NCBI GenBank assembly: GCA_964355955.1
Contig: CAYHFQ010000001.1
Location: 103,419 to 167,418, forward strand
From: an uncultured Gammaproteobacteria bacterium
Lineage (GTDB): Bacteria > Patescibacteriota > Patescibacteriia > UBA9934
Reading direction: 5' to 3'
DNA: 64,000 nucleotides
Shown one piece after another: positions 16,863-63,507 of the stretch. Position 1 is the first letter of the stretch, and each line of letters opens with the position of its first letter. The notes below the pieces were generated by a model. It saw only the letters and a program-made list of their open reading frames with translations, made no database searches and had not been told where the DNA came from. The position numbers and the translations under genes were made by a program.

Positions 16863-16882
16863 ACGACGTTACGCGAGCACAC

Positions 16883-19091: not shown

Positions 19092-19092
19092 T

Positions 19093-20481: not shown

Positions 20482-20558
20482 GTAACTAAAAATTCACGTC
20501 TCGGCCGCACCCAGCGTCCGGGACGTGAATTTTTATTTCTGGTATACTTCCTACCAGT

Positions 20559-21089
20559 ATGATTGCCATTCGCAAATCTCTCCTCGCTTTAATCCTCGGC
20601 TTTACCTTGGCTACCGGCTTGTTCGGCTTCACGCCACCGGCTAAAGCCATCACTATCGATGGCGAATACACTAAGATCACCCAACTCGGCCTCATCTTCG
20701 CCAACGTCTGCTCCGTAGCTAGACCAGATAACGGCACCGATCCTTGTGCTTGTCGCGGCCAAGGACTCTGCACTGTGGATAACATTCTGCAAGTCATTGT
20801 CAACGTTAGCTACCTCATTCTCGCCCTCAGCGGTTCAGCTGCCCTAATCGCTCTCGTCTACGGCGGCCTCGAATGGGTCATTTCCGCCGGTAATCCCGAA
20901 CGTGTTAAACGCGGCAAAGATGCTTTGAGCGGCGCCGCCATTGGTCTTGCCATCGTCTTTGGTGCTTATGTCGCCATCAACCTCCTCATCAGCGTTCTAA
21001 ATAGCGGCAATATACCCACCACTAACCTCGAAACAACCATCGGTAACGGCGCAGATCAAACTATCACTACTGATACTTCAACACCCTAA
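20559..21089 (+). CDS. VirB2/TrbC-like (T4SS pilin-like) small secreted membrane protein, paralog 1
   Basis: Signal peptide, variable mature region, then a conserved C-terminal helix-loop-helix: LILALSGSAALIALVYGGLEWVISAGNPERVKRGKDALSGAAIGLAIVFGAYVAINLL. Confidence 0.6.
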   Translation: MIAIRKSLLALILGFTLATGLFGFTPPAKAITIDGEYTKITQLGLIFANVCSVARPDNGTDPCACRGQGLCTVDNILQVIVNVSYLILALSGSAALIALVYGGLEWVISAGNPERVKRGKDALSGAAIGLAIVFGAYVAINLLISVLNSGNIPTTNLETTIGNGADQTITTDTSTP

Positions 21090-21090
21090 T

Positions 21091-21474
21091 ATGATTACCA
21101 GACATCAAGCTAAACGTGGCGCCATCATTGTTGCGTACTCTCTAGTCCTACTATTGCCTCTCATTCCAGGTCTGGTTCGTGCTGAAGATACAACCACCGT
21201 CACTCTCTACAACCCACTCGGTATAACCGACGTTCGCGTCATCATTGGTCGCGTCATTAAAGGCATTCTAGGCATTGTTGGATCCCTCGCTTTCGTCATG
21301 TTCATCTACGGTGGCGTACTCTGGATGACGAGTGCTGGTAACGCCGATCGTGTAAAAAAAGGTCAAAGCATCTTGGTCTGGACGGTCCTAGGTCTCGGTG
21401 TAATTTTCTCTAGTTACGCCGCCGTCAACGCTATTCTCAACTCTATCACCACCGGCAGCGTCACAGGAACATAA
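21091..21474 (+). CDS. VirB2/TrbC-like pilin-like protein, paralog 2
   Basis: Conserved block LGIVGSLAFVMFIYGGVLWMTSAGNADRVKKGQSILVWTVLGLGVIFSSYAAVNAIL. Confidence 0.65.
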   Translation: MITRHQAKRGAIIVAYSLVLLLPLIPGLVRAEDTTTVTLYNPLGITDVRVIIGRVIKGILGIVGSLAFVMFIYGGVLWMTSAGNADRVKKGQSILVWTVLGLGVIFSSYAAVNAILNSITTGSVTGT

Positions 21475-21518
21475 CAATGTGCTATAATTAAATTATACAT
21501 TCACCTTAACATTTTACT

Positions 21519-21926
21519 ATGTCGAAAGTCTTCTCACGTCTCGTCATGGGACTTGGTCTCGCTACACTTCTCGTGTTGCCACTCGGCCTCTCCCACATCG
21601 GCTTTGTCCACGTTGCTCACGCCCAACAATTACAAACTAGCGATTTGCTTACCACCGGCTTCGGCGATACCGCTGGCCTTGGTCAAGCAGACTTAAAGAC
21701 GACTATTGGCAACCTCATCCGCGTCATGCTCGGTTTCCTCGGTGTCGTCGCAGTCATCATCATTCTCCTTGGTGGTTTCAAATGGATGACCGCTGGTGGC
21801 AACGACGAGAAAGTGCAAGAAGCTAAGAACCTCATCATCGCTGGTATCATCGGCTTGGCCATCATTCTCTCCGCCTTTGCCATCGCTAGCTTCGTCATCA
21901 GCTCCATCATCGGCGCCACACAGTAA
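21519..21926 (+). CDS. VirB2/TrbC-like pilin-like protein, paralog 3
   Basis: Conserved block LGFLGVVAVIIILLGGFKWMTAGGNDEKVQEAKNLIIAGIIGLAIILSAFAIASFVI. Confidence 0.65.
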   Translation: MSKVFSRLVMGLGLATLLVLPLGLSHIGFVHVAHAQQLQTSDLLTTGFGDTAGLGQADLKTTIGNLIRVMLGFLGVVAVIIILLGGFKWMTAGGNDEKVQEAKNLIIAGIIGLAIILSAFAIASFVISSIIGATQ

Positions 21927-21990
21927 ACCTCAATTTCATTTAGATTCTCGAATGACGGTCGGGCTGCAGTTGGTCTGCAACCTCTCCGCT

Positions 21991-22383
21991 ATGCGAAAAT
22001 TCTTCCTCGCCAGTTTACTGGCTGTTTCTTTGTTAGTGCCTCAGCTTACTTTAGCCGCCGACTCAGCTGCTACTAGCTATGGCTTAGAGTCGAGCGGTGG
22101 TGCCGCTGGTCTTCTCACGAATTCCGCAGAAAATACCAATATTACTACCTTTATCGGCTCGTTCATCATCAAGCCTATTCTCGGCTTGGTCGGACTTGGC
22201 TTCTTCATTCTCATGATCTACGGCGGCGTCCTCTGGATGGCTGCTGGCGGCAACGAAACTATCGTCAAAAAAGCCCAAAGCATCCTCACTAGCGCAGTTA
22301 TTGGTGCCATTATTATCATTGCCGCTTACGCCCTCACCAATGCCGTGCTCAACGCTATCACCGCTGGCAATATCTCTGGTTAA
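21991..22383 (+). CDS. VirB2/TrbC-like pilin-like protein, paralog 4
   Basis: Real start ATG 21991 (MRKFFLASLLAVSLL signal peptide). The track ORF 21796..22383 has a spurious upstream extension that overlaps paralog 3. Conserved block LGLVGLGFFILMIYGGVLWMAAGGNETIVKKAQSIL. Confidence 0.65.
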   Translation: MRKFFLASLLAVSLLVPQLTLAADSAATSYGLESSGGAAGLLTNSAENTNITTFIGSFIIKPILGLVGLGFFILMIYGGVLWMAAGGNETIVKKAQSILTSAVIGAIIIIAAYALTNAVLNAITAGNISG

Positions 22384-22392
22384 ACGCTCAGT

Positions 22393-22809
22393 ATGAAAAA
22401 AATTGCCTACGCTTTTCTAGCCAGTCTACTTCTCCTTCCATCCTTCACTTTCGCTGCTGATCCGCCAGCCACACCATCAACCACCAATAGCTCTATTTAC
22501 AGTTCTGGCCTCAACACCGGCGCTAACGCTGCCTACGACAATGCTCTACCTAACGCGGATCTCCTCGGCGTCATTACCCTTCTCATCAAAGCCGTGCTCG
22601 GTCTTCTCGGTGTCGTCTTCCTCGTGCTCATCATCTACGCTGGCATTCTCTGGCTAACTGCTGCCGGCAACGAAGACCGTGTCAAAAAAGCTCAGGGTAT
22701 TCTCAAGAACGCAGTTATCGGTATCTTCATCGTCATAACTGCTTACGCTATCAGTTATTTCATCCTAACAAATATTTCCAATTCCATGACACAAATTTAT
22801 AGCCCATAA
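22393..22809 (+). CDS. VirB2/TrbC-like pilin-like protein, paralog 5
   Basis: Signal peptide MKKIAYAFLASLLLLPSFTFA. Conserved block LGLLGVVFLVLIIYAGILWLTAAGNEDRVKKAQGILKNAVIG. Confidence 0.65.
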   Translation: MKKIAYAFLASLLLLPSFTFAADPPATPSTTNSSIYSSGLNTGANAAYDNALPNADLLGVITLLIKAVLGLLGVVFLVLIIYAGILWLTAAGNEDRVKKAQGILKNAVIGIFIVITAYAISYFILTNISNSMTQIYSP

Positions 22810-22876
22810 GTACCACTTATCGTCCCTCACACTTCATGTTATAATGCTACTGTCTTAAAAATTTTAACCCTTCGCT

Positions 22877-23266
22877 ATGAAGTTAAAGAACATTCTCGTG
22901 GCTGCGGCGCTCTTCGCCCTGCCCTTCGCTCCAATGCTAGTTACCACAACGCACGCTGCCGGTATCGACGTCACAACGAAGCTTGGCACTGTTGGTAGTG
23001 GAGCTGGTTACTCAGCTCAAACTGCCGACTCACTCACTAATACCATCGGCGTACTTATCCAAACTCTTCTCGGTTTCCTCGGTGTCGTCTTCCTCATCCT
23101 TATCATCTACGCTGGTCTTCTTTGGATGACTGCCGCTGGTAACGAAGATAAAGTTAAGAAAGCCCAGGGCATTCTCATGAGCTCCGTCATTGGCCTCATC
23201 ATCTTGCTCTCCGCTTACGCTATCAGCTACTTCGTCATCAGCAACATTCAAAGCTCCATTCAGTAA
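22877..23266 (+). CDS. VirB2/TrbC-like pilin-like protein, paralog 6
   Basis: Conserved block LGFLGVVFLILIIYAGLLWMTAAGNEDKVKKAQGILMSSVIG. Followed by terminator hairpin AGAGCCTGCGGGCTCTTTTT at ~23284-23303. Confidence 0.65.
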   Translation: MKLKNILVAAALFALPFAPMLVTTTHAAGIDVTTKLGTVGSGAGYSAQTADSLTNTIGVLIQTLLGFLGVVFLILIIYAGLLWMTAAGNEDKVKKAQGILMSSVIGLIILLSAYAISYFVISNIQSSIQ

Positions 23267-23377
23267 ACTCACTTACACACAAAAAGAGCCTGCGGGCTCT
23301 TTTTCGTTGTAAACAAAAAGTGGCCCCGGGAAGTAAATCCCGGGCGCCACGTCTGCCGTACGGTTCTTGCTACTTCA

Positions 23378-23899
23378 TCAACGGCAGGAGATGAAGGAGA
23401 TGCTGCGACTGTTCGGATTGGTCGTGGCCGAGTAGCAGGTCGTCGGCAACTTGGTCGCCTTGATGACGATGGCCAGACCGTTCTCTATCACCGGTGGGAT
23501 GCCGGCGTTGTCGTAGTGGTCGCCATAGGCAGTGATGGCTTCTTGCCCATCCGTGACGCCCACATAGTACTTGTCGCCATAGTGGTCGGAGACCAGTACG
23601 GACGTCATCCGGCCGTTGATCCGCGCCACGATCGGCACCGGTGCCCCGTGGTCCATCTTGAAGACGGTCACGGTATCACACCCGGTGTAGTGCGGTACGA
23701 CCATCCTCACCTCCTTCGGCACCCGCAACATGAAGATGCTAGGGCCGAGCTTGGAGAAGTCAGATGGCTCGACCTGCAAGAGACGGCAGGACCTCTGCTC
23801 GATCGCGATCTGCTGCGTCGGCGACAAGCCGCTGAACTCAGAGGCCTTGATACCACCGACGAGGAACAGAACAAGGGAAAGAATCATCGTAGACTCCAT
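23378..23899 (-). CDS. Secreted hypothetical protein (GC-rich island)
   Basis: Signal peptide MILSLVLFLVGG. GC-rich codon usage. A minus-strand terminator hairpin GGCGCCCGGGATTTACTTCCCGGGGCC plus T-run lies just downstream (23320-23350). Confidence 0.6.
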   Translation of the reverse strand: MESTMILSLVLFLVGGIKASEFSGLSPTQQIAIEQRSCRLLQVEPSDFSKLGPSIFMLRVPKEVRMVVPHYTGCDTVTVFKMDHGAPVPIVARINGRMTSVLVSDHYGDKYYVGVTDGQEAITAYGDHYDNAGIPPVIENGLAIVIKATKLPTTCYSATTNPNSRSISFISCR

Positions 23900-24010
23900 G
23901 GCACTCGGCCAACGGTTGTGAATGGAAGTTATTTTTGCTCGGCTCCTCTCTACCCGTTAAGGGAAAGGACCAAACGCGATGCGCGGGGTGGGCTAGTCCC
24001 CCTTTCTGCC

Positions 24011-24643
24011 CTACTCGACGTTGTCGTCTACAATCTTGGGCGGCGGTGCCGGCTTGTCCTGGGTCTTGACCCCCGTGGACTTGCCGCTCTGCTCGCCCTG
24101 ATTGTTGAGCATCTGCTCCGCCTGGTCCATGGCGTCGAGTGCCTGGGCCGTGCTCAGGTGGCCGATGCCGCCGTAGTAGCCACCGATGCCGTCCGGCCAA
24201 CGGTTGACGCTATTCGCCTGCGCCTCACCGACCGGATCGGACACCCGCTTGATGACGTCGCCGTCGATCGAACAGGTGACGTTGCCGTCGCCCTCCAAGC
24301 TCTTGAAGCAGGTCTTGTAGGCTTCGAGGTGCGCCTCAACCTCCAGCTCGTGCTTCTTCTGATCGAACGTCTGTTCGTTCAGCGCCAGCAACTGGTCGGT
24401 CTCGGCCTGGGTGACCTGGACGTTCGCCAACGTGGTCTTCACGTTGTTGTCCGTCAGAGCGGTCAGGGCCTTGACCCCAATGCAGACCGTCCGCGGGGTC
24501 GTCGCTCCGTTCACTCCGTCCACCACCAACTTGGTGTGGCCGAAGGGCGGGCAGTCGATGTCCGAGTGGACGTTGATGTTGGCGTCCACGAGGGTGATGG
24601 GCTCGGCCGCGAGGGCCAGGGAAAGTGCGAGTGAAAGGATCAT
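24011..24643 (-). CDS. Secreted hypothetical protein (GC-rich island)
   Basis: Likely start ATG 24641-24643 (MILSLALSLALAAEP), a signal peptide similar to that of the neighbouring 23378..23899 product. Four Cys residues (C29, C52, C110, C123) in the mature region. Confidence 0.55.
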   Translation of the reverse strand: MILSLALSLALAAEPITLVDANINVHSDIDCPPFGHTKLVVDGVNGATTPRTVCIGVKALTALTDNNVKTTLANVQVTQAETDQLLALNEQTFDQKKHELEVEAHLEAYKTCFKSLEGDGNVTCSIDGDVIKRVSDPVGEAQANSVNRWPDGIGGYYGGIGHLSTAQALDAMDQAEQMLNNQGEQSGKSTGVKTQDKPAPPPKIVDDNVE

Positions 24644-24817
24644 TACAGTCTCTTGGTGAATGGCCAAAGCGGCCAGTTGGTGAGGTATCGCCGCCTATTT
24701 CCTCGGGAATCGAGGCTTTTGACGGACCTAGTAATATAGCAAAAAAACTGCCTTTTGTCAATCACTCACCAACTTTCTTGGCTCTAATTAGCCACAATTT
24801 AGCACTTAATCTGAAGC

Positions 24818-24849
24818 TCTCCCCCAGCCATGGGGAAGTTGGAGGGGGC
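24818..24849. repeat. Palindromic ~33 bp element, intergenic copy (reverse orientation)
   Basis: CTCCCCCAGCCATGGGGAAGTTGGAGGGGGC is the reverse complement, with one change, of the element found inside five CDSs (31473, 45264, 57747, 59425, 62764). Confidence 0.7.
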
Positions 24850-25037
24850 TTTTAGTAACTTCGCAAAGTCAAAACAGCTGGACAAAAACCCAAAAATATG
24901 CTAAATTTCCCGGTCAGCAAACTGCAAATTTGCTGCCGTTTCCCCGTTTTTTCACAACGACGAACCCATTCCGGGCCCACCGTCTTCAAGTTAGTTAACG
25001 TCCACAACGCCCTCCAAAGGGCATTACAGGAGCCATC

Positions 25038-27119
25038 ATGGCCGCCAAATTTGACGAACTCTCCCGCGACATCGACCTCAACCTCAACCAGAGGGGGTTC
25101 GACTCCACTCTGCACAGCATCAAGAACAAGGAGGGTAACCTCGTCCTCGACGCCATCGGCGAAACTGCCGTGGAAAACGTCATGCATGAGGTGGCCACTT
25201 CCCTCGACGCAACCGAGATCATCAAGCTCGGAACCGTCACGGACCTCCTCCTGGCGCTCATTTTGGCTCTGCCTGACGTCAGCCGCAAGTACCTGGCCAA
25301 CTTGCTCGCCAAGCAGGTGAAGAAGGTCCTGAGCGACAAGTCCCTCGTCTCCGACGTGACGGCTGCTATGCTGATCGAAGCCCTGGATCAGGGTAACGCC
25401 ATGGTCATGACCATCCTCGACAACGCTGGTCTGCAGCCCGAGGACATGCGGGCCGCGTTGCTCGACAAGTTCAGCGTGGACATCAAGGAACTCAAGGTCT
25501 GGTTGGCCGGCAAGCTCCCCGCCATCATCGGCGGTCACAGCAGCGGCGGAACCGACCCAGGTCACGACACCAGCCACGGCCCCACCGCGGTTGCCGTCGC
25601 CGCCCCGGTCCTCAACCGCCACCGGGCACAGTTGAATGGCCGCTTGGACATCATGAAGGGTTGGGATAGCCCTGTGCAGGACCTGCTGACCGCCCTGCAA
25701 AATGGTGCAGCTATCGAGGCCCATGGTGACCCGAGCAAGCTTGATGGTACGCCCCTGCCCAAAGACCAACGTCAATGGCTCGGTCTCGCTCATGGCTTCG
25801 TCAAGGGAATCGAGATCATGGTGGAAGATGACGGAGCCCGTGCGACCCTAAAAGCGTCGCTCGAGCAGCTCATCGCCAAGGGCGTGACCAAGGAAGAGTT
25901 GAGTGCCAACCCGCTCGACAAAGCCGGTCACTTCATCCACGGCGTGGTGAAAATCGGTCACAGTGACAAAATGACCGCCATCCTTGACCGGGCGGACGAA
26001 GCCATCGACCTGACAGAGGCCAGGGCTCACCTGCGCCGCTTCATGGGTAAGGACAAACCCACTGTCATCATCGACGTCCCGGAGAAAGACGCCGACGGTA
26101 ATGTAATCGTCCTGTCCAAGGAACAGCAGGTGGAGCGTAAGAAGGAAGCAGAAGAAAAGCGGCTGGCCAACCGCACCAAGTTCGAAGTTGTCACTGAAGA
26201 GGCAGAGGCTTGGAGCAGGTGGGGTCTCAAAAAGATCAAGCAGGCAGTCGGCATCTACGTTGGCAGTGCTGTGACCATCTGCCTGGTCGCCACCGTCGAT
26301 ACCTTCCAGACCCATCTCCTGGAAGGCTGGCTCGCCATTGCGCACAACGTGGTGTTGGGTCTGGCCGTCTGCGGCCTGTTCACGAGTTCCATCGTGTTGA
26401 TCATCGCCCGTCTCGGGCTCTCGGTTCTCGACGCACCGCTGAAGGTCATCGCCAAGTTCATCAAGACGATACCCGGCCAGGAAGACTTCACGTTTGAGGA
26501 TGCCCCCATCTTCAAGCAGGCCAACCTCATCACCATCGTCGTCTTCGGGCTCGGGGTGCTGTTCACGGTTATCGCCATCTTCTGCGCCGTGGGCGGAGGT
26601 TCCGTCATGCTGCCCATCCTGGCCATCCTCGGAGTCTTCTCCTTGGGTGCTTGGGGCGAGCTACAGAAACGTTTCTTCCATGCCAAGTGGTCGGGGCACG
26701 CTCCGGCTGCTGGTCATGATGCTCATCCGACAGCTCCGGCTGGAGGCGGACACGCTCATGATCCTGGTGAGGAGCGCAAGCTCCAGAAGGCAGAGGTCAA
26801 CTTCCTCACCGGACTCAAGGTGTTCTACGTCTTGATGGCTGTGTTCTTCGGAACTCTGATCATCACCGGTGTAGTGACTGCGGGTTACCGCTACCACCAA
26901 ACAAGTCTGGATAAGGCAGCAGCCGCCGAAGTCACAGTCACCACGGAGCGCACCGCGGACTGCGCCGAGGTCACGGCCACTCTGACCAAGTGGGCCGGCG
27001 TGTGGAACGTCAAGAACAACTACCCGGATGAAGGGAGTCGGTTCAGCCACATGTGCGAAGAGACACAGAGCGAGAAGATCGGAACCGCTTGCGCCAAGCA
27101 GGCCTCTCTCTGCCGCTAG
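25038..27119 (+). CDS. Large hypothetical membrane protein (693 aa; ~400 aa soluble N-terminal region, five predicted TM helices, Cys-rich C-terminal tail)
   Basis: Long ORF with GC-rich third positions. TM helices around IYVGSAVTICLVATV, VVLGLAVCGLFTSSIVLIIARL, ITIVVFGLGVLFTVIAIFCAV, MLPILAILGVFSLGAWG and VFYVLMAVFFGTLIITGVV. Antisense ORFs (24852..25793 and others) are taken as GC-driven artefacts. Confidence 0.6.
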   Translation: MAAKFDELSRDIDLNLNQRGFDSTLHSIKNKEGNLVLDAIGETAVENVMHEVATSLDATEIIKLGTVTDLLLALILALPDVSRKYLANLLAKQVKKVLSDKSLVSDVTAAMLIEALDQGNAMVMTILDNAGLQPEDMRAALLDKFSVDIKELKVWLAGKLPAIIGGHSSGGTDPGHDTSHGPTAVAVAAPVLNRHRAQLNGRLDIMKGWDSPVQDLLTALQNGAAIEAHGDPSKLDGTPLPKDQRQWLGLAHGFVKGIEIMVEDDGARATLKASLEQLIAKGVTKEELSANPLDKAGHFIHGVVKIGHSDKMTAILDRADEAIDLTEARAHLRRFMGKDKPTVIIDVPEKDADGNVIVLSKEQQVERKKEAEEKRLANRTKFEVVTEEAEAWSRWGLKKIKQAVGIYVGSAVTICLVATVDTFQTHLLEGWLAIAHNVVLGLAVCGLFTSSIVLIIARLGLSVLDAPLKVIAKFIKTIPGQEDFTFEDAPIFKQANLITIVVFGLGVLFTVIAIFCAVGGGSVMLPILAILGVFSLGAWGELQKRFFHAKWSGHAPAAGHDAHPTAPAGGGHAHDPGEERKLQKAEVNFLTGLKVFYVLMAVFFGTLIITGVVTAGYRYHQTSLDKAAAAEVTVTTERTADCAEVTATLTKWAGVWNVKNNYPDEGSRFSHMCEETQSEKIGTACAKQASLCR

Positions 27120-27251
27120 ATTAGCCCGGCAGAATCAACCATCAACAATTAACCCAAAAGGGGAACACTACTCGTGAGAGCGGTGAGCATATAGTCTTCC
27201 ATAGTGGAATATGAACTGTATGTCTCATCGCTCTCTTCTTTTTGTGGTTTT

Positions 27252-31076: not shown

Positions 31077-31247
31077 GTCGCTCGCAGTCGGCCTGGACTC
31101 TCTCTTCTCCCCGCAGGGCGAGGACGCGGCGCCGCAGGTCGTCAACCGCGCCAGCCGTCTCACCTCGTATGACTCGGGCGCTGGCACAGGGCCGACCTTT
31201 GCTTGGCGCAAGAGTTCCAGGCCAACCGCTCGCTCCTACAAGGCTCA
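31077..31247. repeat. Family A structured intergenic repeat, copy 2
   Basis: Begins GTCGCTCGC and ends GCTCGCTCCTACAAGGCTCAG. Conserved core CGTCAACCGCGCCAGCCGTCTCACCTCGTATGACTCGGGCGCTGGCACAGGGCCGA. The outer inverted repeat GTCGGCCTGGACTCT / AGAGTTCCAGGCCAAC differs in sequence from the other copies but stays complementary. The 3' end overlaps the HK stop codon. Confidence 0.65.
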
Positions 31248-32300
31248 GACCTTGAGTGGGAGTTTGAGGGTGACAGTGGTGCCGTGGCCGGGGGTACTGA
31301 GCATAGTGACGTCGCCACCGATATCGGCCATGATGGATTGGACAATGGCGAGGCCGAGGCCGGAGCCGCCGGTAGCGCGAGAACGGCTTTGTTCAACGCG
31401 CCAGAAACGGTCGAAGATGTGTTCGAGGTCGGGAGGGGCGATGCCAATACCGGTGTCTGTTACCGTAATAAAGCCCCCTCCAACTCCCCCATGGCTGGGG
31501 GAGGGTTGTTCAGTGCCGATGGTGACGTCGACACTACCGTTTTCTTTATTGTAGATGATGGCATTGCTGATGATGTTGCTGAGCGCGACGTCGAGGAGGT
31601 CGCGGTTGGCTGAGATTTCGATGAGGTGAGGAGTTGGTGCCAGGTGCAGTGTAATGTGATGCGCTTCGGCTAAGGATTTGAGGCGGTCGACGGCGGCGGT
31701 GACGAGATCCACGAGGTTGATGAGGCTTGCGGGGCGAGGTGGGGAGTTGTGCTCGTCGAGTTTGGAGAGCAGGAGAAGATCGGCGACGAGGCGGCGCATG
31801 CGTTCGATTTCTTCCAGGTGGCTGTCGATACGGGCTGTGACGACAGGGTCGGTAGCGACCAGGCGTTCGTTTTCGAAGTCAGTTTTAAGAATGGCGAGAG
31901 GCGTGCGGAGTTCGTGGCTGGCGTCGCTTAAGAATTTCTTTTGGGCGCTGTAGGCGGCGCGGATTGGTTTGATAGTGGAACCAGCGACGAGGTAGCTAAC
32001 TAAGCCGGCGATGATGAGGAGAATGCCGTTGACGACAACGAGAGTCTGGATGAGGTCGGAACGGACGTCTTCCGCAGTGGGCACAGGGACAAGCTCGGAA
32101 CGCTCAAGGTCAAAACGGAGGCCGTGGAAACGGTTTTGGAGGCGCTCGCTAAAAATAGTGCGGGTGACGGCACTCGAAATAATGAGAATGGCGGCGAGGA
32201 CGACAATGTAGAGAATTGTCAGCCAGAAACGAGTAGCGCCTAAGCGTTCCTCAAACGAGACGGTAGCCTTTTCCCCAGACTGTTTGGATGCGTTTGGCAT
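31245..32300 (-). CDS. Sensor histidine kinase (HisKA + HATPase_c), two TM helices
   Basis: H-box SHELRTPL, N-box NAIIYN, G1 box DTGIGI, G2 box GGSGLGL. Probable start ATG 32300, overlapping the response-regulator 3' end by ~50 nt. The palindromic in-frame element EQPSPSHGGVGGGF sits just before the G1 box. Confidence 0.85.
   Translation of the reverse strand: MPNASKQSGEKATVSFEERLGATRFWLTILYIVVLAAILIISSAVTRTIFSERLQNRFHGLRFDLERSELVPVPTAEDVRSDLIQTLVVVNGILLIIAGLVSYLVAGSTIKPIRAAYSAQKKFLSDASHELRTPLAILKTDFENERLVATDPVVTARIDSHLEEIERMRRLVADLLLLSKLDEHNSPPRPASLINLVDLVTAAVDRLKSLAEAHHITLHLAPTPHLIEISANRDLLDVALSNIISNAIIYNKENGSVDVTIGTEQPSPSHGGVGGGFITVTDTGIGIAPPDLEHIFDRFWRVEQSRSRATGGSGLGLAIVQSIMADIGGDVTMLSTPGHGTTVTLKLPLKV
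31473..31505. repeat. Palindromic ~33 bp element inserted in frame in the histidine-kinase gene
   Basis: GCCCCCTCCAACTCCCCCATGGCTGGGGGAGGG. Core hairpin CTCCCCCA-TGGC-TGGGGGAG. Open in all six frames. Read on the minus strand as PSPSHGGVGGG. Confidence 0.75.
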
Positions 32301-32913
32301 AAGCTTTTGGTAACTTCTTACGTAAGTTTTTGAGGTGGACGTCGACAACGTTGCTAAAAGAGTCAAAGAAGCGGTCCCAAACGTGAGTCAGGATGTCCTC
32401 GCGGGTGACGACGCCGCCGAGATTCCGCAGGAAATATTCAAGCAGACCGTATTCGCGCAGAGTTAGTTCGATTGGTTTGTCGTCAACGGTGAGGGTTTGG
32501 CTGCGGGTGTCGAGTTTGAGGTTGCCGAGTGTGAGGACGTCGCTGACGACTTGGGGAGCGCGGCGGAGAATAGTGCGAATGCGGGCGACCAGTTCCTCGA
32601 ACGAGAATGGTTTGACTAAGTAGTCGTCGGCACCGAGGTTGAGGCCTTCGACTTTAGCGTCGATAGCGTCTTTGGCGGTTAAAAAGAGGATGGGCACGTT
32701 GTTTTTAGCGGCACGGAGGTTTTGGCAAACGGTGAAGCCGTCACGGTTGGGCATCATGACGTCGAGAATGATGAGATCGTAACCGCCACCTTTGGCCATA
32801 TTCTCGCCCTCCACACCGTCAAAGGCAAAATCGACCGCATAGCCGCGGGCTTGGAGGCCTAGGACTAGGCCTTTATTCAACTTGGGCTCATCCTCTACTA
32901 CCAATAACTTCAT
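32251..32913 (-). CDS. OmpR-family response regulator
   Basis: Receiver domain (VVEDEP, DLIILDVMMP, K in LTAKD) plus winged-helix trans_reg_C (VWGKGYRL). Confidence 0.9.
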   Translation of the reverse strand: MKLLVVEDEPKLNKGLVLGLQARGYAVDFAFDGVEGENMAKGGGYDLIILDVMMPNRDGFTVCQNLRAAKNNVPILFLTAKDAIDAKVEGLNLGADDYLVKPFSFEELVARIRTILRRAPQVVSDVLTLGNLKLDTRSQTLTVDDKPIELTLREYGLLEYFLRNLGGVVTREDILTHVWDRFFDSFSNVVDVHLKNLRKKLPKAYAKRIQTVWGKGYRLV

Positions 32914-35462: not shown

Positions 35463-36893
35463 TTATTTTGTAAGACCGAGGGCGTAGTCGAGCCACCAGT
35501 CTCCAGCTGTGGGGCCGCCGTTACAGGTGCCGTCGGATTCGCCCGGGGGTTTGACCCAGAGATAAGCGTCGACGAGGGTGTTGCCGGTGTTGGTGGTAGG
35601 GTTTTGGCCGATTGCTCGACCGCTTGGGTTGCACCACTCACCATTTGAGCCGTTACCGTTGCGGCTGGTGTCGATGATGAAATGTTTGTTGCTAATGAGG
35701 TTGCTGATAGTGGTGCCGTAGGTGATGTTTTCCCCGTTTGTGTAAAAGTTTGAGACATTGAGAACAAAGCCGTCAGCAGCGGCGATGTTGGCGGTGGTCA
35801 GGCGACTGGCCATGGTGGTGGCGTCGACCCAGTTGGCGTGGCCGGCGTCGAGGTAGACGAGAGAATTTGCGGAAGATTTGAGGATGGTGATGGTTTGGCC
35901 GAGTAAGGCGAGACGATTGGTGGTGACGCAAGAAGCGGAGGTGGCGTCGGGTTCGAGAATAATGACGGCGGGACGATTATGGAGGCCGGCGGCGAAGTTG
36001 GTTAGCCAGGTGAGATAGTCGGCGTCGGAGGCGGCGCCGCTCGAGGAGTAGCAACCAAGGTTAGGAATGTTGTAGGTGACGAGTACGGGGAGAGCGCCAG
36101 CATCAGTAGCGGTGGTGATGTAATTGTTAACCGAGTTCTCGATGTGACTGTTCCAGTCGCCGAACCATTTAGCGACGGGTTGTGAGGCGATTTTTTCAAG
36201 AGCGGCAGCGTCGGTTGGGTTGGTGCCGGCCCAGGCGGTGATTTGCTGGCGGGCGTCGGAGTTGGGGTCAGTGTAGATCGCGCTCAGCGCGATTGGGTTG
36301 TTTGTGGTCAAAGCTGAGCTTTGACTTGGTGTGGAAATGAGCTGGGAACGGGTTTTTAGGACTGAGAGGTCGGGAGAGTAGTCGAGAGAAGTGACGTCGA
36401 GGCCGCGAGTGAAATGCGGAAAGATAGTTGGTGGGAGATCGATGACGTAATTGGCCCAGTTGGCGCCGTAGAGACTGGTGGCTAGAGATTCGGTATTGAG
36501 CCAGCGAAGTTCTTGATTACTGTCGACGATGTAAGTGCGAGCGTCGCTTTGGATTTTGACGAGGACGACGTTGGGTTTGGGGAGGACTAAGGTTGATAAG
36601 GGAAGGGAGGCGAGGATGCTGTCGGAGACGGTAATGACGCGATCGAAATTATTTTGCCAGGTGAAGAAAATTTGCTCGTTGATAAAAGCGTGGCGCTGTA
36701 GGTGGCCATCTTTGTCAAGATCGACGTAGTAAACGTCGGAAAAGTTGGTGCCTTTAAGATAGCTACCGGATTCGACTGTGCTGGCGGCGAAGGCGGGGGA
36801 GAGCTGCGAGAAAAGTGAAGAGAAGAGGATTGAGCATAACAAACAAAGGCCTGTGATGGAGTTTTGCCAGAGTTTGTTAGAGGGAGGAAACAT
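35463..36893 (-). CDS. Glycoside hydrolase family 6-like (cellulase-family) secreted protein with N-terminal accessory domain
   Basis: C-terminal half carries GH6-like motifs: AVIILEPDATSASC (compare LVIEPDSLAN) and YLWVKPPGESDGTC (compare WIKPGGECDG). Also a signal peptide and a shared N-terminal domain. Confidence 0.6.
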   Translation of the reverse strand: MFPPSNKLWQNSITGLCLLCSILFSSLFSQLSPAFAASTVESGSYLKGTNFSDVYYVDLDKDGHLQRHAFINEQIFFTWQNNFDRVITVSDSILASLPLSTLVLPKPNVVLVKIQSDARTYIVDSNQELRWLNTESLATSLYGANWANYVIDLPPTIFPHFTRGLDVTSLDYSPDLSVLKTRSQLISTPSQSSALTTNNPIALSAIYTDPNSDARQQITAWAGTNPTDAAALEKIASQPVAKWFGDWNSHIENSVNNYITTATDAGALPVLVTYNIPNLGCYSSSGAASDADYLTWLTNFAAGLHNRPAVIILEPDATSASCVTTNRLALLGQTITILKSSANSLVYLDAGHANWVDATTMASRLTTANIAAADGFVLNVSNFYTNGENITYGTTISNLISNKHFIIDTSRNGNGSNGEWCNPSGRAIGQNPTTNTGNTLVDAYLWVKPPGESDGTCNGGPTAGDWWLDYALGLTK

Positions 36894-44624: not shown

Positions 44625-45890
44625 TTAGGCCAGCTTCTGTTGGTTATTGAGGTAAATAGTGGCGGACAGGAGGAGGGCGGTGAGCATAGCCAGGTCATTT
44701 TTGAAGAAGGGGACGTCAACGAGGCCGTGGATAAGGATGGTGAAAAAGGCTGCGAGGAGAGCTAAGCTCATGGGGTTGGTACGATGGTGATAGAGGGTTT
44801 TTAGGGTGAGGTAAGAAATGATGAGGAAGGCGAGGAGGCCGGGGAGGCCGAGTTCGACCCAGATGTTTAGGAAAATGTTGTGAGGGTACTGGAAGATTTC
44901 GAAGTAGGTGGCGTCGTGATAGGGGGTGATGACGCTTGGGAAGCCGGAGAGGCCGGCGCCCTGGAGGGGGTGATCGCGGAGCATCGATAACGTCTCGTGC
45001 CACATTTGGGTGCGAGCGGTGCCGCTGACGTCGTGGAGGAAGATTTTTTCTTTAATTAAGGGGATAGAGAGAGCGCCGATAAGGGCGAGGAGGGCGAGGG
45101 CCGTGCTGACGAATTTTGTGGTGCGAGAGGCTTTAGAGAAGAGAAGAGTGATAAAGAGGGCGGCGGGAATGGCGATGAGGGCGGCTTCGGTTTTAGCGAG
45201 GATGATGGTGAGTGCAATTACTGTGATTGAGGCTGCTAGAGCCAGTTTGTGCTTTGCATTAAGGCCCCCTCCTAACTCCCCCATGGCTGGAGGAGGGTTT
45301 ACGAGTACGACGATGAGTATGGCTAAAATGGGGGCGAGGAAGAGGCCAACGGCGTTTGGAAAGTCGAATATAGATGTTACGCGATGTTCGGCGAGCCAAG
45401 CGAGAGGGAAGCCGAGACCGGTGAGGTATTGGGCCAGACCGAGAAGAGCAACGATGACCGCGCTGCCAGCTAGGGCGATAAAAGCAGACGTCCAGTCGGC
45501 GGGTTTTTTAAAGGTCGATAAGGTTAGAATGAGGATGACGGCTGGCTCGAGGTAATAGGCTTTGAGGATGCCGAGGGCAGTGAAGACGTCAGGGGCGTGA
45601 GCGGCTGCGAAGAAAGCACAGGCGAGGAAAAAGAGAAGGGCTAAGCGCCAACCCTTAGAGTTGGGTAACGCTAAGTGTTGATTATGAAGAAAATGTTTCT
45701 GAACGAGCCAGATGGTGAGGAGGATGAGAGTGAGGATTTCCAAGGCTGTTGTTGGGAGAGGGCCGAGGGAGAAGCGGAGGAGATAGGTGGGGAGGAGGCC
45801 GCAGAATAGTATTAAGCCTAGGCGGAAGTTGGGCCAGGCGAGAATGGCGAAGGAGGTGAAGAGGATGAGGAGAAAAGCGGCGTAGAGCAT
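44625..45890 (-). CDS. O-antigen ligase-like (Wzy_C family) polytopic membrane protein
   Basis: More than ten predicted TM helices with a large periplasmic loop. Likely start ATG 45888-45890 (the track uses TTG 45908). Contains the in-frame palindromic insertion PPPAMGELGGGL. Confidence 0.65.
   Translation of the reverse strand: MLYAAFLLILFTSFAILAWPNFRLGLILFCGLLPTYLLRFSLGPLPTTALEILTLILLTIWLVQKHFLHNQHLALPNSKGWRLALLFFLACAFFAAAHAPDVFTALGILKAYYLEPAVILILTLSTFKKPADWTSAFIALAGSAVIVALLGLAQYLTGLGFPLAWLAEHRVTSIFDFPNAVGLFLAPILAILIVVLVNPPPAMGELGGGLNAKHKLALAASITVIALTIILAKTEAALIAIPAALFITLLFSKASRTTKFVSTALALLALIGALSIPLIKEKIFLHDVSGTARTQMWHETLSMLRDHPLQGAGLSGFPSVITPYHDATYFEIFQYPHNIFLNIWVELGLPGLLAFLIISYLTLKTLYHHRTNPMSLALLAAFFTILIHGLVDVPFFKNDLAMLTALLLSATIYLNNQQKLA
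45264..45297. repeat. Palindromic element inserted in frame in the O-antigen-ligase-like gene
   Basis: GCCCCCTCCTAACTCCCCCATGGCTGGAGGAGGG. Read on the minus strand as PPPAMGELGGG. Confidence 0.75.
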
Positions 45891-45913
45891 AGTGTTTATA
45901 TAGGTCAAGTTTT

Positions 45914-57662: not shown

Positions 57663-58157
57663 ATGGATAAGCAATACCGTCCGAATGCCGCCGTGTTAAT
57701 TACCGATGGTAGCGGGCGGATTTTGTTGTGTGAGAGAATCGATACAGCCCCCTCCATCTCCCCCATGGCTGGGGGAGGGTTACAAGTGCAAACGGTGCAG
57801 GGTGGTGTCGACCATGGTGAGACGGCTAGAGAGGCGGCGGTGAGAGAGGTTCGTGAAGAAGTTGGGTTAAAGCCGGAGCAGTTTACGATCATTGCGGAAC
57901 AGGCGGAGAAGTTTAGGTATGAATGGCCCGAGGATTATAAGGCGAGATTCCCGCCGGGCATTGTGGATGAATTTGTGGGGCAAGAGCAGACCTTCTTTTT
58001 GGCGCAGGTGGAGCCTGACGTGGTTTTCGACTTAGAAACGCATCACCCGGAGTTTAGCAGGGTATGGTGGGGGAGTCCGCAGGAATTGGTTGACCAGTGT
58101 TGGGAGGTGAAGAGACCGGGGATAGAGAGGGCGTTAAAGGATTTTGGATTGCTGTAA
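57663..58157 (+). CDS. NUDIX hydrolase (RppH-like)
   Basis: Nudix box GGVDHGETAREAAVREVREEVGL. Contains the in-frame palindromic element (TAPSISPMAGGGL) upstream of the Nudix box. Confidence 0.8.
   Translation: MDKQYRPNAAVLITDGSGRILLCERIDTAPSISPMAGGGLQVQTVQGGVDHGETAREAAVREVREEVGLKPEQFTIIAEQAEKFRYEWPEDYKARFPPGIVDEFVGQEQTFFLAQVEPDVVFDLETHHPEFSRVWWGSPQELVDQCWEVKRPGIERALKDFGLL
57747..57779. repeat. Palindromic element inserted in frame in the NUDIX gene
   Basis: GCCCCCTCCATCTCCCCCATGGCTGGGGGAGGG. Read on the plus strand as APSISPMAGGG. Confidence 0.75.
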
Positions 58158-58983: not shown

Positions 58984-60000
58984 TTAATTGCGGTTCCAAG
59001 TTTGAGTAGCGGGGACGGGGAAGGTGCCGAGGGAAGGTTGGCGGTTGTGGATGCTGATGGCGACGGGGGTGATGGTGATGTTTGTGTCGGTGATAGTGAT
59101 TTGCAGCATCATGCCCTGAGTGGTGGCGACCGACCAATCTTGGTCGAAGACGAAGTTGCCGAGGGAGTAAGCGACGGGAATGCCGCTGACGGTATTGATT
59201 GGCTCGATGATGTGCGGATGAGCACCGACGATGAGATCCGCACCGGCATCGACGAACATTTGAGCAGCGTCGACCTGGGCGGGGGAGGGTTCAATTTGAT
59301 ACTCGTTGCCCCAGTGTGGCATGACGATGACGAAGTTGCCGGCGGCTTTTTCTGCGATGATGGCAGTAGCGATTGTTTGAGGCTCTTCGAGAAAGGCGTG
59401 GAAGCCGATGAGGGCTATGTTCAGGCCCCCACTAACTCCCCCATAGCTGGGGGAGGACTTCCAGTGGACGATGTGAAGTTGGCTCTCGACTGGGTCGCCG
59501 AAAGTTTGCAGGCCGAGATTGGTTAGAGCTTGATGGGTAGCTGTAGTGACTGCTGAACCGAAGTCGTCACCGTGGTTGTTGGCGAGGGAGAGATTTGTGA
59601 AGCCAGCGTTTTTGAGGCCGACTATGGAGGATGGCAGGGTGTCGAAGGCTAAGACCTCGCCTTCGTAGCGATAGGCGTCACGAATGGTACTTTCGAAGTT
59701 GCCGATAACGAGGTCGGAACCTGACCATTGATCTTTGATGGCGGCGAAGGGATAGTCGACGCCGTTTTTGATGATGGCTTTCTCGACTTCGCGAGCCAGC
59801 ATGATGTCGCCGACGAAGGTGATTTTAACAGAGGAAGGGGTGGTAGATGGTAGATTGTAGAAAGTAGAAGGCTCAGTAATCGAGTTTGAAGTTGTTTTGT
59901 CAGAAGCTGAGGAGGTGCTGGCGGTGACAGCAAAGCCGGCCCAGATGAAAATGAGGGGGAGAAAGATAAGGCCGAAAATGAGGGGGAGGCGACGAAACAT
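58984..60000 (-). CDS. CapA/PgsA-family metallophosphatase (poly-gamma-glutamate synthesis-like)
   Basis: MPHWGNEYQ...DAGADLIVGAHPHIIEP motifs. Start ATG 59998-60000 (MFRRLPLIFG signal anchor). The track ORF extends over the tRNA-Gly gene and is trimmed. Contains the in-frame palindromic element (SSPSYGGVSGGL). Confidence 0.75.
   Translation of the reverse strand: MFRRLPLIFGLIFLPLIFIWAGFAVTASTSSASDKTTSNSITEPSTFYNLPSTTPSSVKITFVGDIMLAREVEKAIIKNGVDYPFAAIKDQWSGSDLVIGNFESTIRDAYRYEGEVLAFDTLPSSIVGLKNAGFTNLSLANNHGDDFGSAVTTATHQALTNLGLQTFGDPVESQLHIVHWKSSPSYGGVSGGLNIALIGFHAFLEEPQTIATAIIAEKAAGNFVIVMPHWGNEYQIEPSPAQVDAAQMFVDAGADLIVGAHPHIIEPINTVSGIPVAYSLGNFVFDQDWSVATTQGMMLQITITDTNITITPVAISIHNRQPSLGTFPVPATQTWNRN
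59425..59456. repeat. Palindromic element inserted in frame in the CapA gene
   Basis: GCCCCCACTAACTCCCCCATAGCTGGGGGAGG. Read on the minus strand as SSPSYGGVSGG. Confidence 0.7.
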
Positions 60001-60030
60001 AAGGAGAGTATAAGCTAGAAAAGGTGAAGT

Positions 60031-60058
60031 AACAAAAAATACCAGCCGAGGCTGGAAT
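60031..60058 (-). terminator. Rho-independent terminator downstream of tRNA-Gly
   Basis: CCAGCCTCGGCTGG hairpin followed by a T-run on the minus strand. Confidence 0.6.
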
Positions 60059-60062
60059 CTTT

Positions 60063-60137
<75 letters not shown>

Positions 60138-60969: not shown

Positions 60970-63507
60970 TTAGACGGAAGGAATCAGAGTGCGTGATTTA
61001 GTGAACCAGTAACCGAAGGCACCGAGAGAGCTAGCTACAAGACCGCCACCAGCTAGAGGTTTAAGAGGGATGGGGGTTGAATGTTTAGTGTTAGCGGCAG
61101 CAGAGATAGCGGCGGAATGATCTTCGACAACATCGGCAGTAGTGCGAGGCATGAGAACGTCTTCATTGCCTAAGTGGCGGAGAATGCCGGTGATGGTTAG
61201 CTCCGAGGAGGTGAGGGACGACCAAATGATGCCAGTGGTTTTGTAGGCGTCGATAATGACGTCGTGGCCGTCGACTTTGAGAGTGAGCTTTGAACCATTG
61301 CGAGTAACGACGGTACCGTGAACGGTAATGAGTGATGGTTCGGTTGAGGCGCTGAGGTCGGTTGAGGACGTCAGTTCTGCGTTGCCAGTTATGGTGATAG
61401 CAGAAGCGTTAGATAGTTTAATGCGTTGTTCGCCGTTCGCGGTAGAGGTAATGCCGGTGATGGTGATGATGTCGCCGAGGGCGAGAGCTGGCCAGTCGGC
61501 GTTGTCCATGTAGAGAGTGGCGCCATTAATGAAGGCGATCTGCTTGCCGAAGGTGCCTGGTGTGGCAATGATTGTGCCTTGGTAGGTAACTAGGATGTTG
61601 TCGGCAACGCCCGTGAGGGTGGTGATTAGTTGTGGTGCTTTGCTGACTTTGGTGGATTTCTTTTTGGTTGTTGCTTTAGTAGCTACTTTGGTGACAGATG
61701 TCTTGGTGACAGTTAATTTAGGGGCTGTAATTTGTTTAGTTGTTGATGAAGCGTTGATTGATGTGGTGGTGACTGGAGCGAGTTTAACGGCCGTCCCGCT
61801 CTGATTGGTTATTGGGTTTGTGTCACCACTCAGGGCAGAGGTGGTTAAAGTTGAGCTTTGACTGAGCTCGACGATTACAGGCGGCTCGACTGCTGGTGAG
61901 ACTTCGCTAATAATGGAATTAGACGAGCCTGGAGTTGGGGTGGTGGAGAGGAGCCAAGCGTCACCTGTACGGCTGAGACTTGCGTCGTGTTTAGGGGCGG
62001 CGAGGAATGACGTGCCGTAGCTGACGGTGTCGACGAGTTGACCTGAGGCGTCGAAGAGATTCAGTGTGTCGCCATCGTTGTTGAGTTTGCCACTTGGGTT
62101 CAGAATGGTTTGGTAGCCGCCAGCGAGAATGGTATCGGTGAAAGCTGTGACTTGGCCGGAGGCGTCCGTGATTGAATAGCCGCTCAGTTCGACGTCAACA
62201 GGATTGGGGTTGTAGACTTCCACCCATTCGTCAAAACCGGTACTGGGAGAGGGGAGGAATTCGTTGAGCACGAGGGGCATAAGTGAGGGCTGAGTGGCGG
62301 GTTGGCTGAGTGGCGGGGTGGTGGATTCAGTGATTGATTCGGGGATGATGGGTGTTATGCTTGGCTCGGCGATAACAGGAGAGTCGAGAATTGGTGTTGT
62401 AACAATTGTTTCGAGGATTGGTTCGCTAATTGGCTCGGCGATAGGTGCGGCGACGATTGGAGCTGAGTCAATTATGGGTTCGGTTGTGGTCAGAATAGGC
62501 GTTTCGGTAATGGTTGACGCTTCGACGATGCTGTTCTGATCGGTAGCGGGGGTGTCGACAATTAGCTCGGGTGGGATGGCCTGTACCTCGATGGTGATTA
62601 TAGGATCGGTGGGGATGACAATGATGTCAGTTGAGGCTGCACTTGGTTCGGTGAGAACGACAGGCTCGGGAATAAGTATTGGGTCGGTCACAACTGGCAT
62701 GGGCGTGAGGGTGTCGGTGATGATGAAATCTGGCGTTGGCTCTGCCGGTAAGACATCCGCTGGCCCCTCCATGGCTGGAGGGGGATATTCGGGTGAGGTG
62801 GTGATTGACTCCGTGACAACTGGCTCGGGAGAAACGAGGGTATTGATGATTGGTTCGGGGATTGGTGCAATCACAGGTTCGACGATCAATGCAGGATCAG
62901 GAATGGGCCCAGTAGTAGTCAGCGGAGCTGCCACTACGGGCTGAACGAAGCCTGGAGAGCCGAGTTGGGTAGCGTCGATGAGGTTGATTGATGAGGAGGG
63001 ATTTTGCCAGGTCAGAGTGGCTAGATTGCGCTCCATGGAGGAGAAGATGGGCGTGGTGCTGCCGTAATCTGGGGTGCCAGCGTCGACTAAACTGTCCACC
63101 ACGAGGTCGGAAGTGTCGAGAAGTGAGAGGGTTAATTTAGTGTTCGGCAGGCTAATGGCGGTTGTCACATAATCGGCCTGATTGACGAGGGTGGAGACAT
63201 CGCTCGGGGCGTAGTTGGCGATGAGGAAGGTACTGTAAGCGGGTATGGTTGACCCTTGGGGGAGGGTTAGATTAGTGCTGCTCGTGCCAGCGCCGGTTAT
63301 GTTCCATCCACTGAGATCGATGGGGCTTCCTCCAAGATTGGCCAGCTCCAGCCACTCGTCGGAGCTATTTCGCAGGCTTCCTCCCCAGTCCACTTCCGAG
63401 AAGAAGATTCCTGGTGGTGGCTCCGCCGCACGGGCGGATAGAGTAAGCAGAGGGGACAGCAACCCGACAAATACAAAGCTTGTGCAGAGGACATATAATG
63501 ATTTCAT
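60970..63507 (-). CDS. Large secreted surface protein with two lamin-tail-domain (LTD)-like modules, Pro/Thr/Ile/Glu-rich linker, and a C-terminal Gly-rich + hydrophobic + basic tail
   Basis: Signal peptide MKSLYVLCTSFVFVGLLSPLLTLSARA. LTD-like segments (FSEVDWGGS...DEWLELANLGGSPIDLSGWNITG and LNEFLPSPSTGFDEWVEVYNPNPVDVELSGYSITD). C-terminus ...PLKPLAGGGLVASSLGAFGYWFTKSRTLIPSV. Contains a short variant of the palindromic element (PPPAMEGP). Confidence 0.7.
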   Translation of the reverse strand: MKSLYVLCTSFVFVGLLSPLLTLSARAAEPPPGIFFSEVDWGGSLRNSSDEWLELANLGGSPIDLSGWNITGAGTSSTNLTLPQGSTIPAYSTFLIANYAPSDVSTLVNQADYVTTAISLPNTKLTLSLLDTSDLVVDSLVDAGTPDYGSTTPIFSSMERNLATLTWQNPSSSINLIDATQLGSPGFVQPVVAAPLTTTGPIPDPALIVEPVIAPIPEPIINTLVSPEPVVTESITTSPEYPPPAMEGPADVLPAEPTPDFIITDTLTPMPVVTDPILIPEPVVLTEPSAASTDIIVIPTDPIITIEVQAIPPELIVDTPATDQNSIVEASTITETPILTTTEPIIDSAPIVAAPIAEPISEPILETIVTTPILDSPVIAEPSITPIIPESITESTTPPLSQPATQPSLMPLVLNEFLPSPSTGFDEWVEVYNPNPVDVELSGYSITDASGQVTAFTDTILAGGYQTILNPSGKLNNDGDTLNLFDASGQLVDTVSYGTSFLAAPKHDASLSRTGDAWLLSTTPTPGSSNSIISEVSPAVEPPVIVELSQSSTLTTSALSGDTNPITNQSGTAVKLAPVTTTSINASSTTKQITAPKLTVTKTSVTKVATKATTKKKSTKVSKAPQLITTLTGVADNILVTYQGTIIATPGTFGKQIAFINGATLYMDNADWPALALGDIITITGITSTANGEQRIKLSNASAITITGNAELTSSTDLSASTEPSLITVHGTVVTRNGSKLTLKVDGHDVIIDAYKTTGIIWSSLTSSELTITGILRHLGNEDVLMPRTTADVVEDHSAAISAAANTKHSTPIPLKPLAGGGLVASSLGAFGYWFTKSRTLIPSV
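62764..62784. repeat. Short variant of the palindromic element in the LTD surface-protein gene
   Basis: CCCCTCCATGGCTGGAGGGGG (stem CCCCTCCA / TGGAGGGG, loop TGGC). Read on the minus strand as PPPAMEGP. Confidence 0.6.

Follow-up and report, generated by a model that had tools for sequence, protein, structure and literature searches.

What is a GC-rich palindrome of some 33 nt doing in frame inside several unrelated genes? The question is raised by a stretch of 64,000 nt (hereafter the window) from contig CAYHFQ010000001.1 of assembly GCA_964355955.1, a genome deposited as uncultured Gammaproteobacteria and placed by GTDB in the Patescibacteriota, in which one hairpin sequence, here called family A, recurs. 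The window was searched with the 20-nt core CTCCCCCATGGCTGGGGGAG, allowing up to 3 mismatches, and matches were found at 24819(-), 31484(+), 45276(+), 57758(+) and 59436(+); the core had 0 matches in 100 dinucleotide-preserving shuffles of the window (chance expectation 0). The window thus holds five full copies of GCCCCCTCC-NN-CTCCCCCA-TRGC-TGGGGGAG-RG, four in frame in genes and one intergenic, and the same five, with no others, are recovered by a profile hidden Markov model (HMM) made from 33 copies (E 5.7e-16 to 2.5e-12). The intergenic copy lies in the divergent gap between 24011-24667(-) and 25038-27119(+). A preliminary description of this DNA had listed in-gene copies in a histidine kinase (HK), a Wzy_C membrane protein, a NUDIX hydrolase, a CapA-like protein and an LTD surface protein, plus one intergenic copy. 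All are recovered except the LTD site (62767-62781), which the profile HMM scores at E=1.2. The LTD variant CCCCTCCATGGCTGGAGGGG does form a perfect hairpin with the family-A loop, and its peptide PPPAMEG is close to what the family's PPPAMGExEG would become on losing 9 nt. Its membership is uncertain, as it could be a family-A derivative with a 9-nt deletion or a separate hairpin type. The open reading frames (ORFs) of the hosts are intact, as had been described, and carry their Pfam domains (HisKA + HATPase_c, Wzy_C, NUDIX, PGA_cap and LTD). Rfam at the gathering threshold detects five tRNAs only in the window.

Alignment of ~45 copies gives the consensus TTAMRG-CCCCCTCC-NN-CTCCCCCA-TRGC-TGGGGGAG-RG-YTTAC(R). 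The conserved flanks TTAMRG...RGYTTAC extend the unit beyond the ~33 bp originally given, to 33-45 nt. Variation is confined to the NN directly 5' of the stem, the R of the loop and the R after the stem, the rest being near-invariant; in active copies 31 of 33 positions are so. Subfamilies co-vary, C9 with G33 and T9 with A33, and a fully compensated stem variant, CCCCTCCA/TGGAGGGG, occurs both in the LTD variant and in the second hairpin of a ~75-nt composite in the metagenome-assembled genome (MAG) CAYFME01. Copies in the H41 MAG have conserved flanks of their own, AATGACM...GAMGCTTCTG, so the flanks belong to the element and not to the target. At about -9 kcal/mol as single-stranded DNA, the hairpin (8-bp stem, 4-nt loop) stands out from shuffles by only z = -1 to -1.5, since the C-run/G-run composition is itself self-complementary and any such sequence folds well. 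The perfect stem that had been reported holds for three of the five window copies; two have a stem mismatch, and the loop is either TGGC or TAGC. All six reading frames are open in the consensus; of the individual copies, that in Wzy has 4 open frames and that in CapA has 3. Stops in individual copies fall only in frames unused by the host.

We then considered how the copies are read. In a count of 40 copies, with CAYFME01 left out, 32 (~80%) lie well inside long ORFs. Three of the six frames are used, giving APSxSP[IM]AGG[GE] (n=13), [NS]PPPAMGExEGA (n=13) and SPS[HY]GG[VA]GGG (n=6), peptides rich in Pro, Ser, Gly and Ala. The other three frames, which yield Trp/His/Arg/Leu-rich peptides, have 0 uses, though they are usually open, and this constitutes a frame filter. 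As to location within the hosts, alignments of NUDIX, HK, CapA and Wzy orthologues bear out the proposal that insertion takes place in indel-tolerant loops. The NUDIX insert is found seven residues ahead of the Nudix box, and in the AlphaFold2 (AF2) model (predicted local distance difference test, pLDDT, 91.8 overall) it is a coil at ~55 between strands 20-25 and 45-48. In the AF2 model of HK, the insert makes the turn of a beta-hairpin (strands 256-264 and 275-282) immediately ahead of the G1 box; the Wzy copy sits in an inter-helix loop. Judged from the models, the host folds are likely kept despite the inserts, which are predicted as low-confidence coil or beta-turn.

Comparison of orthologous sites reveals presence and absence of the segments. 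In the NUDIX gene the segment is missing from 29 of 29 other aligned orthologues (48-88% identity), which read D-G-[VIL]-[FY]-[SA]-Q where the window has D-TAPSISPMAGGGL-Q; the net gain in DNA is +24 relative to locus L056 and +27 relative to locus L003. The CapA gene has two such sites, the window copy being missing from Candidatus (Ca.) Uhrbacteria UBA11707 and from L056, and a UBA11707 copy being missing from the window and from L056, with net +24 at each. The HK segment is missing from 32 of 33 other aligned homologues (net +24). The exception is Ga0394676 (L059 10798-10828), which has a decayed copy with 6-7 mismatches at the same nucleotide site; the site is empty in UBA11707 and LJ_bin-3226, both closer to the window than Ga0394676 for the HK gene. 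Conversely, the window is empty where the UBA11707 orthologue of gene 11803-12792 carries a copy (net +21) and where the LJ_bin-3226 orthologue of gene 48400-50271 carries one (net +6). The Wzy copy is orthologous and common to the window and UBA11707. In LJ_bin-3226 and Ga0394676 that loop holds another palindromic element, family B, and this accounts for a Wzy net gain of only +6. These alignments indicate, as the preliminary description had anticipated, that the segments are acquired rather than ancestral; they are lineage-specific, with sites differing by lineage. The clean ~11-aa insertion that it had proposed is not what is seen: the net gain is +24 nt (+8 aa) at four independent sites and +2 to +9 aa over all sites, and ~9-21 nt (or more) of the native loop is replaced each time, so that the net gain is always smaller than the element. 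No target-site duplication is present at any compared site; site pairs are few, and empty sites have diverged by 12-25% from filled ones.

What happens to a copy after it has been acquired can be followed at shared sites. Between the window and UBA11707 the Wzy copy differs at 3 of 35 positions and the gene at 16%; between the window and Ga0394676 the HK copy differs at 6-7 of 33 positions and the gene at 23%. Decayed copies are also found in L056, where the LTD gene holds two. Orthologous copies thus decay at about the host-gene rate, which suggests no sequence-level function after fixation. Because shared copies diverge like host genes, the near-identity of the many copies within a genome reflects recent copying, not conservation.

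An orientation rule relative to GC skew emerged that the preliminary description did not contain. In genomes with strong GC skew, 31 of 32 copies have positive skew over the 3 kb on each side when these are read in the direction of the element (p = 1.5e-8). Copies on one contig are co-oriented on six of six contigs, and orientation relative to the host gene is mixed (13 sense, 19 antisense). The window contains an internal control for this rule. Its sole minus-strand copy (24817..24849) sits in a block at ~16.85-27.24 kb that is inverted, by synteny, relative to UBA11707, Ga0394676 and Ga0103682, and that has negative GC skew, the remaining window being at +0.25 to +0.35. The block looks like a recent inversion in the window genome. 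It comprises (~16850-27240) a T4SS-pilin cluster, NTP_transferase and SBP genes and a gene for a 693-aa membrane protein. The G-rich strand is usually the leading strand and hence the lagging-strand template. Elements of the IS200/IS605 family of insertion sequences (IS) show the same bias, their active strand being placed on the lagging-strand template (PMC5027513).

How widely does family A occur? In a scan of 185,579 species, each represented by one genome (a collection that the window genome, a 1,085,513-bp contig, lies outside), the full element was found in Patescibacteria MAGs only, mostly Uhrbacteria. Together, ~45 further copies were identified beyond the window in Uhrbacteria/Patescibacteria MAGs, so the genome-wide count proposed earlier shows the copies to be numerous, present in other genomes and not unique to the window. 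UBA11707 alone has ~21 copies on 662 kb of contigs; other carriers are LJ_bin-3226, LJ-3-15m_bin-0684, Patescibacteria H41-bin178 and H52-bin134, DeMMO3_42 and CAYFME01. Density is 5 copies per 64 kb in the window and ~1 per 13-30 kb overall. Protein identity of the window is ~70-76% to UBA11707, LJ_bin-3226 and Ga0394676 and ~45% to H41. CAYFME01 was deposited as uncultured Gammaproteobacteria. Its DnaK, however, shares 87% identity with a DnaK from Ca. Uhrbacteria, and the MAG is thus mislabelled and belongs to Uhrbacteria-like Patescibacteria. Its copies (L009, L020, L022, L023, L030, L039, L051 and L053) are the ~75-nt two-hairpin composite and are mostly intergenic. Occurrence outside Patescibacteria was considered and rejected, since the single matches in other phyla are without the left arm and represent unrelated GGGGAG-type palindromes or chance. 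Separately, CAZWUX01, an Anaerolineae MAG of 66% GC, contains four copies (L004, L025, L041 and L052) of a different repeat, which shares the exact 20-nt hairpin core with family A and has another 5' part, CCCCCACCGGCCTTCGGCCAC; the shared core may reflect convergence or an old relationship. A metagenome scan returned just 12 contigs, mostly from the Hainich H41 site already found, and among these 12 there was no closer empty site and no autonomous element. [quoted passage not shown]

We favor, with a probability of roughly 0.6, the reading of family A as a mobile hairpin that is non-autonomous and coupled to the replication strand, selfish DNA of REP-like or Rickettsia palindromic element (RPE)-like character that is filtered by selection. 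Replication coupling and a mobilising enzyme are the parts of this reading that we infer. Copying would take place at the replication fork, on single-stranded DNA, and this would explain why the same element strand ends on the G-rich strand, the lagging-strand template. Each event would write in the ~33-45 nt unit and remove ~9-21 nt of target; selection would then retain only in-frame events that hit surface loops or linkers and are read in one of the three flexible Pro/Ser/Gly/Ala frames. A fixed copy would be without sequence-level function and would decay at about the host-gene rate. The most likely candidate mobiliser is a HUH/Y1 transposase of IS200/IS605-RAYT type (RAYT, REP-associated tyrosine transposase) acting in trans, on account of the hairpin with a 5' single-stranded arm, the variable dinucleotide at the place of the IS608 guide bases and the strand bias.

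Several known systems share part of these properties. RPEs (Ogata et al. 2000) are palindromic repeats lying in frame in unrelated housekeeping ORFs of the small, reduced Rickettsia genome (PMC10969869, PMC3733652). The likeness to RPEs drawn in the preliminary description concerns behaviour: in both cases many in-frame copies persist in unrelated ORFs, with host proteins intact and the peptide placed where the fold tolerates it (PMC10969869). It does not extend to size, RPEs being ~100-150 bp and contributing a conserved peptide of tens of residues, whereas family A, at 33-45 bp about a third of that size, adds net ~8 residues in three frames and replaces native loop; moreover its hosts are all Patescibacteria and it follows a strict strand rule. 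REPs are GC-rich imperfect palindromes linked to RAYT (Y1 HUH) transposases, a minority of them inside ORFs (PMC3733652, PMC3333891, PMC2817692), and are tagged by a GTAG or CGTC tetranucleotide at one end (PMC3733652). With REPs and REP doublets forming hairpins (REPINs), family A shares a 20-40 bp GC-rich stem-loop, a conserved single-stranded 5' part, multiple copies and subfamilies, and movement in single-stranded form has been proposed for REPs, as we propose it for family A. However, the family-A end is RGYTTAC (reverse complement GTAARYC), with GTAA(A/G)C in about half of the copies and neither GTAG nor CGTC; ~80% of copies are intragenic, whereas REPs are mainly extragenic; copies are singletons rather than inverted dimers, the two-hairpin composite occurring in CAYFME01 only; and a RAYT was not found in annotated neighbourhoods or by a weak tblastn of ~690 kb.

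The IS200/IS605 elements IS608 and ISDra2 resemble family A in their one-strand hairpin, lagging-strand-template orientation, lack of target-site duplication (PMC5027513) and TTAC-like tetranucleotide beside the element ends. They differ in having two subterminal hairpins and tnpA, where family A has one hairpin and no tnpA, and in inserting precisely 3' of a fixed tetra- or pentanucleotide target without target loss, where family A loses 9-21 nt. A classical MITE is a poor match given the lack of target-site duplication and the only weakly inverted ends, TTAMRG and RGYTTAC. DNA uptake sequences (DUS) and uptake signal sequences (USS) stand at ~1 per kb, arise by substitution and are maintained by drive or selection, in contrast to 5 per 64 kb, a change of length and gene-like decay of shared copies for family A. 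Fungal mitochondrial GC clusters and double-hairpin elements are likewise mobile GC-rich palindromes of ~30-50 bp in a compact genome and are sometimes in frame. They differ in being organellar, of unrelated sequence and with no known replication-strand rule.

A number of observations count against the favored reading of family A. Among the genes called across window 21-42 kb and 47.6-68 kb, Pfam identifies no transposase, and tblastn with IS608 TnpA and E. coli RAYT queries found none in ~690 kb around copies, a weak negative. Loss of target does not fit the known Y1 "peel and paste", which deletes no target DNA, and the net gains (+24, +24, +24, +24/27, +21, +12, +6) are all smaller than the element. 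Instead of two subterminal hairpins the element has one, and it is without a GTAG or CGTC tag. Two lineages that are not sisters for the HK gene, the window and Ga0394676, both have the HK site filled; recurrent insertion, recombination between lineages or a refreshed copy are possible accounts. The element sequence is nearly identical across genomes at only ~45% amino-acid identity, which requires either horizontal spread or a conserved recognition protein. Finally, the strand rule is not demonstrated in the H41 MAG, where GC skew is nearly absent and a pair of copies, 1 kb apart on a single contig, point in opposite directions.

Other candidates were tried and rejected. Two inverted copies in L021 do not bracket a transposase, as both sit in ordinary genes, one UDP-glucose dehydrogenase-like (read from sequence, no family search) and one encoding a hypothetical protein. 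Among the ORFs adjoining intergenic copies, quick inspection showed nothing transposase-like. A model of TA or TTAC target-site duplication, with 39 nt between the TTACs, suits several UBA11707 copies, yet empty sites never give +39. Adenine mutagenesis of the NN in the manner of a diversity-generating retroelement (DGR) was dismissed, since neither a template-repeat/variable-repeat (TR/VR) pair nor a nearby reverse transcriptase is present and decayed copies also vary at positions other than A. Integron attC sites, CRISPR repeats and terminators were set aside as well, there being no cassettes, arrays or T-runs, and copies lying inside ORFs.

Could the copies arise without any transposase? 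Under template switching, or microhomology copying, a nascent strand would halt at the C-run/G-run hairpin, re-anneal elsewhere via a few bases (TTAMRG... / ...GTTTAC-like) and resume there, writing the hairpin and skipping a few native bases. This would accommodate the replacement, never pure insertion, seen in every filled/empty comparison and again in the unrelated family B, as well as the absence of a transposase from annotated neighbourhoods and the weak tblastn; the native HK sequence already had TAATAA and TTGTTG, like the element flanks, and the strand bias would be self-propagating if donor and target were both lagging-strand template. But the repeated +24 at four independent sites and the sharply conserved ends look enzyme-defined, the 31/33 near-invariant positions of active copies suggest recognition by a protein, and the site pairs are too few and the empty sites too diverged (12-25%) for microhomology statistics. 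We consider template switching the main rival to the favored reading, though unlikely. Quite unlikely, in our judgment, is an undescribed "replace-and-paste" process at the fork, which would lay a fixed cassette over ~9-21 nt of lagging-strand template with a net +24, employ no known transposase, serve at least two unrelated families and act as a systematic source of new protein surface loops in the streamlined genomes of the Candidate Phyla Radiation (CPR), where intergenic space is almost lacking.

The remaining explanations invoke selection on the sequence rather than its movement. Chi and KOPS typically show such a strict strand polarity with respect to GC skew, and the same sequence is found in distantly related Patescibacteria, so family A might be a polar DNA motif that benefits the host, either an uptake signal for Patescibacteria competence or a Chi/KOPS-like signal. 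Haemophilus uptake sequences, too, occupy tolerant reading frames in genes. Such a role is highly doubtful given a density of ~1 per 13-30 kb instead of the ~1 per kb of DUS/USS, copies that arise with a +24 nt length change rather than by point substitution, a different set of sites in each lineage, decay of orthologous copies as fast as the surrounding gene (two shared sites), and a 33-nt hairpin far larger than known polar motifs. Ordinary low-complexity Gly/Pro-rich loops, ancestral or convergent, with DNA similarity as a by-product of protein selection, would match the Pro/Ser/Gly/Ala-rich peptides and their place in loops. This account retains next to no probability: the same DNA is read in three frames and on both strands as three unrelated peptides, frame and orientation data that refute it, one copy is intergenic, orthologues are without the segment, and chance expectation is 0.

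The window contains further repeats (Table 1). Family B, absent from the preliminary description, is a second intragenic palindromic family of the form ~GCTCAGCTCGnTTGTTGGnTTTGCG-GCCAAAGCT-S-AGCTTTGGC. The Wzy_C gene of LJ_bin-3226 has three family-B copies, one of them in the loop that holds family A in the window, and at loci with both families B is oriented like A. Family C, a ~150-bp intergenic repeat bounded by long terminal inverted repeats (GCGACTGGCAG...CTGCCAGTTGC), matches no Rfam family and folds no better than shuffles. Two of its copies adjoin family-A hosts, at the HK 3' end and the Wzy 5' end. Two ~90-bp stretches, at 10369-10460 and 60159-60252, share the 16-17-mers TGGCCTATTTTGGGCTT and CGCACCCAAACTAGTC and could be a repeated promoter or small-RNA region; the latter stretch is just upstream of tRNA-Gly (60063-60137, -). 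The same tRNA gene is overlapped by the longest PGA_cap ORF (379 aa); the L056 orthologue is called at 330 aa, and the true start of the PGA_cap gene is probably further downstream.

Table 1. Palindromic repeats of families A, B and C and the genes that carry family A. Positions are those of the window unless a locus is named.
Feature	Position	Strand	Remarks
Family-A copy in histidine kinase gene, antisense	31473..31505	+	perfect consensus; encodes PSPSHGGVGGG; profile match 31468-31509
Family-A copy in Wzy_C / O-antigen-ligase-like gene, antisense	45265..45297	+	one stem mismatch (GGAGGAG); encodes NPPPAMGELGGG
Family-A copy in NUDIX hydrolase gene, sense	57747..57779	+	perfect; encodes APSISPMAGGG
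Family-A copy in PGA_cap (CapA-like) gene, antisense	59425..59457	+	left arm CCCCCACT; loop TAGC; encodes SSPSYGGVSGG
Family-A copy, intergenic	24817..24849	-	one stem mismatch; in 16.85-27.24 kb block
Short perfect hairpin in LTD surface-protein linker	62764..62783	n/a	CCCCTCCA-TGGC-TGGAGGGG; encodes YPPPAMEG
Host: sensor histidine kinase, HisKA + HATPase_c	ORF 31245-32366	-	Pfam; called 31245..32300 in public assemblies, 351 aa
Host: Wzy_C family membrane protein	44625..45908	-	Pfam
Host: NUDIX hydrolase	57663..58157	+	Pfam; 164 aa
Host: PGA_cap (CapA-like)	58984..60123	-	Pfam
LTD surface protein, carries the short hairpin	60970-63507	-	Pfam
Family-B copy in GH6 gene (35463-36842, minus strand)	36282-36325		net +12 nt replacement vs UBA11707
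Further family-B copies	L043 1871, 2373, 2769; L059 3656; L008 4598; L010 6034; L011 2882		
Family-C copies, window	14327-14479, 31131-31248, 45914-46071, 55253-55388		
Family-C copies elsewhere	L001 2582-2738; L013 6478-6611		L001 copy abuts a family-A copy

Family A extends to the CPR the phenomenon of selfish DNA inside protein-coding genes, which is best known in Rickettsia, and does so with an element near the smallest possible size. The combination of a strand rule, a frame filter and filled and empty sites provides a clean data set on how hairpin repeats move, and if the target replacement and the +24 reflect insertion chemistry, the mechanism would differ from Y1 "peel and paste". The element creates strain-specific indels in conserved enzymes and is in this respect a practical marker. 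For annotation and phylogenetics of CPR genomes it is also a warning, as loop insertions may be mobile DNA and not adaptive features.

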